NCBI RefSeq assembly: GCF_003334385.1
Contig: NZ_QOWN01000183.1
Direction: 5' to 3' (one strand)
DNA from: Escherichia coli
GTDB taxonomy: Bacteria; Pseudomonadota; Gammaproteobacteria; Enterobacterales; Enterobacteriaceae
DNA length: 431 nucleotides
Below, one piece after another: positions 1-431 of this stretch. The position numbers and the translations under genes are program-made. The notes beneath the pieces were generated by a model. It saw only the letters and a program-made list of their open reading frames with translations. It searched no databases and was not told the origin of the DNA. Each line of letters begins with the position of its first letter. Within the stretch, counting starts at the first letter, position 1.

Positions 1-77
1 GCAACCAGCATTAGTGAAAATGAAATACCGACAATCACACACAGGACCTTTGCCGGCGTTATGAGTTTGTCTGACAT
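1..77 (-). CDS. 5' end of a protein-coding gene (start ATG at 77-75, continues beyond window position 1); hydrophobic N-terminus suggests a membrane or secreted protein; identity unknown
   Basis: Minus-strand ATG at 77-75 is the first start after an in-frame TAA (89-87). It is preceded by AAGGGG (88-83) with a 5-nt spacer. The frame stays open to position 1 and reads MSDKLITPAKVLCVIVGISFSLMLV..., with a hydrophobic stretch from about residue 10. The supplied track omits it, apparently because it is partial. Confidence 0.6.
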   Translation of the reverse strand, partial: MSDKLITPAKVLCVIVGISFSLMLV

Positions 78-79
78 AG

Positions 80-175
80 CTACCCCTTAATTGCCACAAT
101 TAACTGGGATACTACCCATAAAAAAGGGATGCTCCAGACCAGCAAAAATTTCCAGTTTGGTAATTGACTAATCAT
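80..175 (-). CDS. Candidate small ORF, 31 aa (MISQLPNWKFLLVWSIPFLWVVSQLIVAIKG), predicted single-pass small membrane protein; hypothetical
   Basis: This is the internal ATG (175-173) of the 70-aa track ORF, in the same frame, with TAG stop at 82-80. AGGGAG (190-185) lies 9 nt upstream. The peptide has a roughly 20-residue hydrophobic core (FLLVWSIPFLWVVSQLIVAI) flanked by K residues. Caveat: the minus strand is T-rich here, which favours hydrophobic codons by chance. Confidence 0.35.
   Translation of the reverse strand: MISQLPNWKFLLVWSIPFLWVVSQLIVAIKG
83..88 (-). promoter_or_regulatory. Shine-Dalgarno / ribosome-binding site (AAGGGG) for the gene starting at 77
   Basis: Minus-strand AAGGGG lies 5 nt upstream of the ATG (AAGGGGtagctATG), a near-ideal spacing for a purine-rich Shine-Dalgarno. 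Confidence 0.6.
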
Positions 176-184
176 GAGTCGCAA

Positions 185-190
185 CTCCCT
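185..190 (-). promoter_or_regulatory. Putative Shine-Dalgarno (AGGGAG) for the candidate small ORF
   Basis: Minus-strand reads AGGGAGttgcgactcATG. The GGAG core is present and the 9-nt spacer is at the long end of the functional range. Confidence 0.35.
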
Positions 191-240
191 AATCAGTTTG
201 CTAAAATCAATCAAGGCAGCCTCCCATAGCTTACTGCCAT

Positions 241-280
241 AAAAACAAAACCCCGCTTGCTGCCAACAAACGGGGTTTTT
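241..280. terminator. Rho-independent (intrinsic) terminator, potentially bidirectional
   Basis: Stem 251-259 (CCCCGCTTG) pairs with 267-275 (CAAACGGGG): 9 bp with one C/A mismatch and five G-C pairs, loop 260-266. It is followed on the plus strand by TTTTT (276-280) and preceded by AAAAACAAAA (241-250), which is UUUUGUUUUU on the minus strand. The minus-strand TAA stop at 287-285 lies 9 nt before the hairpin. Confidence 0.75.
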
Positions 281-284
281 ACTT

Positions 285-431
285 TTATTCACTTACATTT
301 TGCCAGTTCGCAGGATTTCGTGTTATCCGTCCGCCTTGGCCAACGTCATTTATTAGCAAAATATTCTGCTTATCTGTCGATTCCCCAGCACGCCAGCGCG
401 CTCTCCTGGTCTCGCCGGGATACCTGACCGT
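285..431 (-). CDS. 3' end of an upstream protein-coding gene (enters from beyond 431, TAA stop at 287-285); product unknown; frame assignment uncertain
   Basis: Minus-strand frame is open from 431 to the TAA at 287-285 (48 codons: ...TVRYPGETRRARWRAGESTDKQNILLINDVGQGGRITRNPANWQNVSE*), and the stop is followed immediately by the terminator. Caveat: this frame holds several codons rare in enterobacteria (AGG x2, AGA, CGA, CGG, CTA, ATA x2). Another minus frame, stopping at 372-370, and a stop-free plus frame are also open here. Confidence 0.4.
   Translation of the reverse strand, partial: TVRYPGETRRARWRAGESTDKQNILLINDVGQGGRITRNPANWQNVSE

Follow-up and report, generated by a model that had tools for sequence, protein, structure and literature searches.

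A candidate intrinsic terminator downstream of the endolysin gene R in the late operon of an Escherichia coli lambdoid prophage

The R–Rz junction of the prophage

The DNA analyzed here, referred to throughout as the window, is a stretch of 431 nucleotides from Escherichia coli (contig NZ_QOWN01000183.1, assembly GCF_003334385.1) in which a GC-rich hairpin follows the endolysin gene R. It is the lysis region of a lambdoid prophage resembling the Shiga-toxin (Stx) phages, with the late genes on the minus strand. The 431 bases show 100% identity to many E. coli chromosomes; among 5,426 complete E. coli genomes the window was present in 2,027, and 703 of these match it over at least 80% of its length. 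Read along the minus strand, the 3′ end of R is followed by a conserved non-coding segment, an A-rich tract, the hairpin with its U-tract, a short spacer and two small hydrophobic open reading frames (ORFs), the elements 3′ of R lying in a variable insertion between R and Rz.

In the annotated prophage record that covers the window (L001, whose coordinates differ from those of the window), the late genes run in the order class II holin, YdfR, lysozyme, several small hypothetical ORFs, Rz (annotated as 'lysis protein'), HNH endonuclease and terminase. The Q antitermination gene ('antitermination protein') is located on the late-gene strand, ~8 kb upstream, and its product matches Pfam PF03589 twice, with E values of 1.1e-26 and 5.6e-22. 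The broad order of Q, tRNAs, morons (the 'more DNA' units of Juhala/Hendrix, as cited in PMC4104026), holin, R, Rz and terminase is canonical for lambdoid phages and is the layout of a Q-dependent late operon. We also noted that a small plus-strand ORF situated between ydfR and R is followed by a plus-strand terminator (L001 7227-7254).

The window contains the 3′ end of R (370..431, minus strand), a signal-arrest-release (SAR)-type endolysin gene encoding 177 amino acids in full and closed by the stop codon TAA at 372..370; the carboxy-terminus translates as ...RRDQESALACWGIDR* (...ALACWGIDR-TAA). Its identity follows from the match to PHROG 7 endolysin (E 1.4e-62) and from the RefSeq 'lysozyme' coding sequence (CDS), which ends at window position 370; the R gene of phage 933W stops at the homologous position. 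From this stop codon it is 94 nt to the GC core of the hairpin and ~89 nt to the A-rich tract. A preliminary description of the same DNA had the hairpin abutting the upstream stop codon, a placement that does not hold for R: the TAA adjoining the hairpin, at 287..285, closes an off-frame ORF of 93 amino acids that overlaps R (window 285-431 minus; L001 6285..6566), and it was probably this codon that misled the description.

Structure and conservation of the hairpin

A terminator scan of the window returned one site, on the minus strand, with a stem at 279..247 comprising 15 pairs (6 G-C), a loop of 3 nucleotides and the tail GTTTTTATGG. The stem-loop, AAAACCCCGUUUGUU-GGC-AGCAAGCGGGGUUUU (247..279, minus), contains the GC core CCCCG...CGGGG at 275..251 and is directly followed on its 3′ side by the U-tract UUUUGUUUUUAU (250..239, minus), the expected release site of late-sense transcripts. 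Just 5′ of the stem, the A-rich tract UGAAUAAAAGUAAAAA (276..291, minus) lengthens the helix by pairing with the U-tract, and the same tract encodes a U-tract of the opposite strand, with plus-strand positions 276-286 reading TTTTTACTTTT (RNA UUUUUACUUUU). The GC-rich hairpin within 241-287 and the availability of a U-tract on either strand, as given in the preliminary description, are therefore both present. Folding of positions 241-287 as minus-strand RNA yielded -21.1 kcal/mol with a z-score of -4.71, a value reached by 1 of 200 shuffles, and the slightly longer region 236-295 yielded -24.2 kcal/mol (z -5.43; 0 of 200 shuffles). The corresponding plus-strand RNAs gave -14.2 kcal/mol (z -3.36) and -15.3 kcal/mol (z -3.17), respectively.

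Relatives of this junction were collected in two sets. The pattern-based set, assembled by BLAST on phage records and by a scan of viral contigs for the core 15-mer of the non-coding segment, and hence biased towards keeping that 15-mer, comprises 46 distinct homologues, all of them directly 3′ of an R gene. The unbiased set consists of 80 loci picked only by R protein similarity (93-99% identity), 76 of which had enough downstream sequence. In this second set a CCCCG...CGGGG-type hairpin was found in 53 of the 76 loci. An unrelated hairpin at the same site (GGCACCGTAATGGTGCC or ...GATGCC; that is, GGCACC...GGTGCC/GATGCC), continued by TTTGTCATTT and followed by ant, occurred in 14, and the other 9 had no insertion, the R stop codon overlapping the Rz start as in K-12 Qin. 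Where the insertion is present (67 of 76), it begins just past 'GCAGA' after the R stop. The cargo 3′ of the 53 CCCCG-type hairpins is a window-type TTG ORF in 15 loci, a CP-1639-type GTG ORF in 16, an unrelated 'MEKYKRILL...' ORF in 21 and another sequence in 1. Judged from this survey, a terminator-like hairpin is held at the R-side junction irrespective of the cargo downstream.

In the 933W/Sakai type the hairpin at the equivalent site reads GGCACCGTAATGATGCC (L213 ~1440-1460; L003), and the phage-86-type variant, with GGTGCC, is perfectly paired and folds with -10.1 kcal/mol. A further terminator-like hairpin was seen in 933W ~70 nt beyond the equivalent site (L213 1401-1382). A wider taxonomic scan of genome contigs with the pattern GGATAACACRAAATCN{23,27}ATAAAR gave only 8 matches, all of them by chance and in unrelated phyla.

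Among the 21 distinct CCCCG-type variants, the helix of 15 pairs was 91.1% paired as sense RNA, compared to 43-62% when the 3′ partners were slid by 1-3 columns. Three pairs of the helix are altered on both sides, for example from U.G to A-U or G-C at one position and from U-A to C-G at another. The covariation score of the helix was 0.112 as opposed to 0.076 in shuffles, with 1 of 500 shuffles scoring as high, and RNAalifold applied to 48 longer sequences recovered the same helix. The T-rich tail is preserved in every CCCCG-type variant; columns 10-13 of the A-tract are invariant across the 21 variants, Salmonella ones included, and its remaining columns are nearly so. The hairpin thus displays the features of an intrinsic terminator, namely a stable GC-rich stem-loop, a U-tract 3′ of the stem and pairing maintained in evolution. 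As far as alignments and folds can indicate, it is a functional-looking element maintained by selection as a sense-strand intrinsic terminator, in line with the role in ending the minus-strand transcript that had been proposed for it.

The two strands differ in how well they form this structure. Three G.U pairs of the minus-strand RNA of the window become C.A mismatches in the plus-strand RNA, and across the variants 34 G.U cells stand against 6 A.C cells, such that pairing drops to 82.2% when the helix is read as antisense RNA. In 19 of 22 variants the sense version of the core hairpin is the more stable one, and the mean energies are -12.8 kcal/mol (sense) and -9.7 kcal/mol (antisense); for the core of the window itself the values are -15.6 and -9.2 kcal/mol. 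The plus-strand hairpin falls below the terminator criteria of the scan, and the 933W-type hairpin has a U-tract in the sense direction only and no upstream A-tract. These data point to termination on the sense strand as the conserved property; antisense termination may occur with the variant of the window, in a weaker form that is not conserved.

Transcription across the hairpin

The promoter scan found no sigma-70-like site on the minus strand, neither between the hairpin and the next ORF nor anywhere else in the window, in agreement with the preliminary description, which had seen no convincing sigma70 promoter ahead of the small ORF. Because the minus strand of the window is devoid of such a site, the small ORFs and Rz would be transcribed by polymerase passing the hairpin, so that the downstream genes need read-through. 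Regulated read-through had been raised as a possibility in that description, and the Q gene upstream on the same strand now offers an ordinary mechanism for it; the action of Q on this particular hairpin is what we infer. A second strong terminator-like hairpin on the sense strand stands immediately before the holin gene (L001 7953-7925, minus), and the holin-endolysin block is consequently bracketed by terminators, as expected of a Q-dependent operon.

In lambdoid phages, polymerase that carries the Q modification passes the intrinsic terminators of the late operon (Roberts and others). We consider it probable that the hairpin and its U-tract form a Rho-independent terminator within such a Q-antiterminated late operon, located at the left edge of the variable R-Rz insertion. 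Unmodified polymerase travelling inside the lysis genes, for instance on transcripts of the lysogen from upstream moron promoters, would stop at the hairpin, and the small membrane ORFs, Rz and the packaging genes beyond it would stay silent in the lysogen, with the hairpin serving as an insulator. Upon induction, Q-modified polymerase from the late promoter would pass the hairpin together with the other internal terminators; in Q-driven lytic growth the terminator would be silent, and the downstream ORFs could do without a separate promoter. A description of the moron and late-promoter context is available (PMC4104026).

Several established systems share parts of this arrangement. The terminators of lambdoid Q-dependent late operons (lambda tR′ and those downstream of it, and the Stx-phage late regions) likewise combine a GC hairpin and a U-tract on the late strand with Q upstream and promoterless genes downstream; the hairpin of the window differs in its location, which is behind R and not directly downstream of the late promoter. 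A terminator of the window type is not annotated in the 933W record or in the other records examined. The hairpin also recalls a moron boundary, as it marks the edge of an insertion that is present or absent between two conserved late genes and whose cargo, either small membrane ORFs or ant, is interchangeable, yet a canonical moron consists of promoter, gene and terminator, whereas here the terminator lies upstream of the cargo and no promoter was found. The late small RNAs (sRNAs) of Stx phages (StxS, AsxR, AgvB, Pas) resemble it in that a conserved non-coding stretch ends in a terminator within a Stx-type late region, but their location and sequence are different, AsxR and AgvB lying at the moron site after the late promoter and PasB in the tail region. 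Taken as a terminator, the hairpin is an unannotated but ordinary case of the well-known intrinsic class, and it leaves the current view of phage late-gene control unchanged. Its value is mainly one of annotation, as it probably marks a transcript boundary in a prophage module of about 2,000 of the 5,426 complete E. coli genomes and of Stx phages. Dependence on Q would explain why the small ORFs and Rz are promoterless, and terminators bracketing the lysis genes would help to explain the requirement for Q in lysis and toxin release of Stx phages.

Several observations weigh against a Q-controlled sense-strand terminator at this site. Counted over the whole window, terminator-like sites are no more numerous than in shuffles (1 versus 0.5 +/- 0.7), and as the site count alone is at chance, the case for the hairpin is built on the fold z-scores and on the conservation with its compensatory changes. 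The commonest 933W-type variant (GATGCC) is mismatched, folds in the sense direction with only -3.4 kcal/mol and is not called by the scan; given the weakness of this variant, a strong terminator is not universally kept at the R-Rz site. Simple termination leaves the conserved upstream A-tract and the 85-nt segment unexplained. Finally, neither a late promoter nor a Q-binding site was identified in this prophage.

The alternative that survives best assigns the main job of the hairpin to the plus strand, where a truly bidirectional terminator would halt antisense transcripts arriving from downstream morons before they reach R and the holin gene. It is compatible with sense-strand termination, and we regard it as possible but doubtful. 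The plus-strand RNA does fold stably (-14.2 kcal/mol, z -3.4) and continues into UUUUUACUUUU, and every CCCCG-type variant, those from Salmonella included, conserves the A-tract from which this U-tail is transcribed. An upstream A-tract is, however, reportedly also a strengthening element of one-way terminators (Chen et al. 2013). Possible sources of plus-strand transcripts lie at some distance: a near-consensus promoter-like site at L001 4513-4540 (plus; TTCACA, 16 nt, TATAAT; 11 of 12 matches), antisense within a 'TonB family protein' gene and ~1.7 kb off, is directed toward Rz and the hairpin, and the nearest annotated plus-strand gene facing the hairpin, a YlcI/YnfO-family gene at L001 4009-4209, is ~2 kb away; the scan found no plus-strand terminator between either of them and the hairpin. 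Inside the window, the only plus-strand promoter-like site, with 9 of 12 matches at 71-100, does not rise above chance level, nor is its position conserved, the CP-1639 match being ~21 nt out of register and SPN3UB having none.

The structural asymmetry between the strands speaks against a main function on the plus strand, with a plus-strand hairpin that fails the scan rule, a core of -9.2 as opposed to -15.6 kcal/mol, and G.U pairs and compensatory changes that favour the sense RNA. Phages of the 933W type lack an antisense U-tract at this site. Bidirectional intrinsic terminators are reportedly found between convergent genes (Ju, Li and Liu 2019); the A-tract, hairpin and U-tract of the window resemble them in yielding U-tails on both strands, but here the two flanking genes both lie on the minus strand, no convergent transcription is apparent, and the G.U-driven asymmetry weakens the antisense form. 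From the bidirectional function put forward in the preliminary description, the U-tracts on both strands and the plus-strand fold thus stand, while the weaker antisense core, the co-directional neighbours and the lack of a conserved plus-strand promoter in the window count against an antisense role.

The conserved segment and the small downstream ORFs

Directly 3′ of R, a conserved non-coding stretch of ~85 nt (284..369, minus) forms the left end of the R-Rz insertion, with the core GGATAACACGAAATC at 328..314; its near-invariant core reads GGATAACACRAAATC. Part of the invariance of the core 15-mer stems from the search pattern, and variants of it do occur in the unbiased set. The segment is common to 933W, Sakai Sp5, phage 86, CP-1639 and PhiR12, and Salmonella phages such as SPN3UB carry it with ~63% identity; it was present in 67 of the 76 loci selected by R and missing where R overlaps Rz. 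Its divergence amounts to ~0.55-0.65 of that at the 4-fold sites of R (0.13 versus 0.235 for close pairs, 0.38 versus 0.58 for distant ones), which indicates moderate constraint of the kind commonly seen between genes. The segment could be no more than the left arm of the R-Rz insertion.

Structural analysis of the segment gave fold z-scores of -1.97 in the sense and -0.27 in the antisense direction for the window, and of +0.69 for SPN3UB. RNAalifold yielded no structure supported by covariation, only a nearly invariant 4-bp stem, GGAU/AUCC. A long-range pairing of the two variable patches of the segment appears in the minimum-energy fold of the window and was discarded, as it is neither kept across the variants nor recovered by RNAalifold. 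Searches against Rfam at a permissive threshold gave only terminator-driven matches for the window, with E > 0.5, and nothing at the equivalent site in 933W, CP-1639, SPN3UB and PhiR12. A literature search by sequence strings and locus tags returned nothing relevant.

We considered whether the hairpin represents the 3′ end of a regulatory sRNA, composed of the 85 nt and the terminator (~130 nt) and derived from the 3′ untranslated region (UTR) of the R mRNA or from an undetected promoter, perhaps bound by Hfq, which we judge unlikely. The conservation of the 85 nt from E. coli Stx phages to Salmonella phages, at a divergence well below that of the R 4-fold sites, would fit such an RNA, but its level is typical of intergenic DNA and the constancy of the 15-mer is in part an artefact of the search pattern. 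A-R-N repeats are an Hfq-binding motif according to Tree et al. (PMC4104026), and the A-rich run AAUAAAAGUAAAAAC, which adjoins the U-tailed terminator, comprises five A-R-N triplets, a resemblance at the level of sequence. The sRNA screen of that study discarded all non-antisense peaks located within 100 bp of a CDS (PMC4104026) and could have missed an RNA at this position. Against an sRNA stand the lack of a sense-strand promoter in the window, the low fold z-scores, and the absence of any covariation-backed structure beyond the 4-bp stem and of an Rfam family.

The candidate is also not among the EcOnc or Pas sRNAs. For the Pas sRNAs of enteropathogenic E. coli (EPEC), PasB lies between tail genes, PasA, PasC and PasD were placed by holin/lysozyme synteny, and the published fragments of PasA and PasD differ in sequence; prophage PP2 of E2348/69 has no R-Rz insertion. 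None of the EcOnc sRNAs of Sakai falls within the R-ant spacer of Sp5. Elsewhere in Sakai, EcOnc10/11/12, which are abundant Hfq-bound peaks (Tree et al. 2014), appear just downstream of Rz beside a small reverse-strand gene (Sp10, L131 ~1946.8-1947.1 kb), a placement that is approximate given coordinate versions ~140 bp apart.

In a broader form of this idea, the segment and the terminator together would constitute an undescribed phage RNA element common to E. coli Stx phages and Salmonella lambdoid phages, acting either as a 3′-UTR-derived sRNA or as a cis signal that sets the passage of transcription or translation from the endolysin gene into the spanin or antirepressor genes. We see little prospect for it; were it true, the timing of lysis and the release of Shiga toxin would be subject to an additional level of regulation.

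A conditional attenuator or riboswitch-like leader, in which the 85 nt would sense a signal and toggle the hairpin for the small ORFs and Rz independently of Q, appears highly improbable. Its architecture would fit, as a conserved leader is followed by a terminator and then by a Shine-Dalgarno sequence and an ORF without a promoter. However, no sequence in the leader is complementary to the 5′ arm of the stem (CGGGG does not occur upstream), which leaves that arm without a partner for antiterminator pairing, and the occurrence of this leader next to a non-homologous hairpin in 933W-type phages excludes sequence-specific antiterminator pairing. The leader further shows no significant structure and no Rfam match better than E 0.5. 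A leader peptide was likewise rejected, as the 8-codon ORF within the segment has lost its ATG in many variants.

Least probable is a reading of the hairpin as incidental coding sequence within the 70-aa protein that RefSeq annotates from GTG 292 (292..80), in a frame that is indeed open across the hairpin: unrelated ORFs follow the same hairpin at spacings that do not keep the frame, the substitutions preserve pairing and not codons, and with at least four unrelated cargos behind the hairpin and a PHROG 6632 family that begins past it, the hairpin is not coding sequence.

The first ORF beyond the hairpin encodes a small membrane protein of the PHROG 6632 family with 44 amino acids (80..214, minus), starting at TTG 214..212 and stopping at 82..80. 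Its RefSeq form, WP_001043230.1, extends over 70 amino acids from GTG 292 to position 80 and would span the hairpin. The PHROG 6632 profile, 45 positions long, aligns with residues 1-43 of the 44-aa form but with only residues 28-69 of the 70-aa form, and the CP-1639 and SPN3UB homologues have their start at the equivalent GTG, preceded by a Shine-Dalgarno sequence. In the window, the spacer between hairpin and ORF (215..238, minus) carries the Shine-Dalgarno sequence GGGAGG at 225..220, five bases ahead of the TTG, and no promoter-like site. As the profile match, the Shine-Dalgarno sequence and the starts of the homologues all place the ORF start at TTG 214, the hairpin is intergenic, and the 70-aa hypothetical protein of RefSeq is probably over-extended through the terminator. 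The profile match also speaks against a start at ATG 176. A possible hairpin enclosing the Shine-Dalgarno sequence in its loop (GGCAG...CUGCC; 5-6 bp, ending one base before the TTG) was not above shuffles, with a z-score of -0.13.

The next small hydrophobic ORF (1..77, minus) starts at ATG 77..75, encodes 43 amino acids and matches PHROG 4906 (E 4.5e-21); it relies on the same read-through as the PHROG 6632 ORF. A type I toxin-antitoxin system, consisting of an antisense RNA and a small hydrophobic ORF, was considered for this region and set aside in view of the chance-level, non-conserved promoter-like site at 71-100. The R-Rz interval as a whole holds a run of very small hydrophobic ORFs, comprising those of PHROG 6632 (44 aa) and PHROG 4906 (43 aa) and two hypotheticals of 51 and 28 amino acids (window 1-214 minus; L001 5729-6214). 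Given their membrane-like sequences and their place in the lysis cassette, they could be lysis accessory proteins. In SPN3UB, an unannotated hydrophobic ORF of 36 codons, MSKRDVSALCFLMAAAVAISGNDGWGWLIFAGIIIL, whose ATG overlaps the endolysin stop codon (L006 ~1735-1845 minus), fills the extra ~100 nt that precede the conserved segment in this phage.

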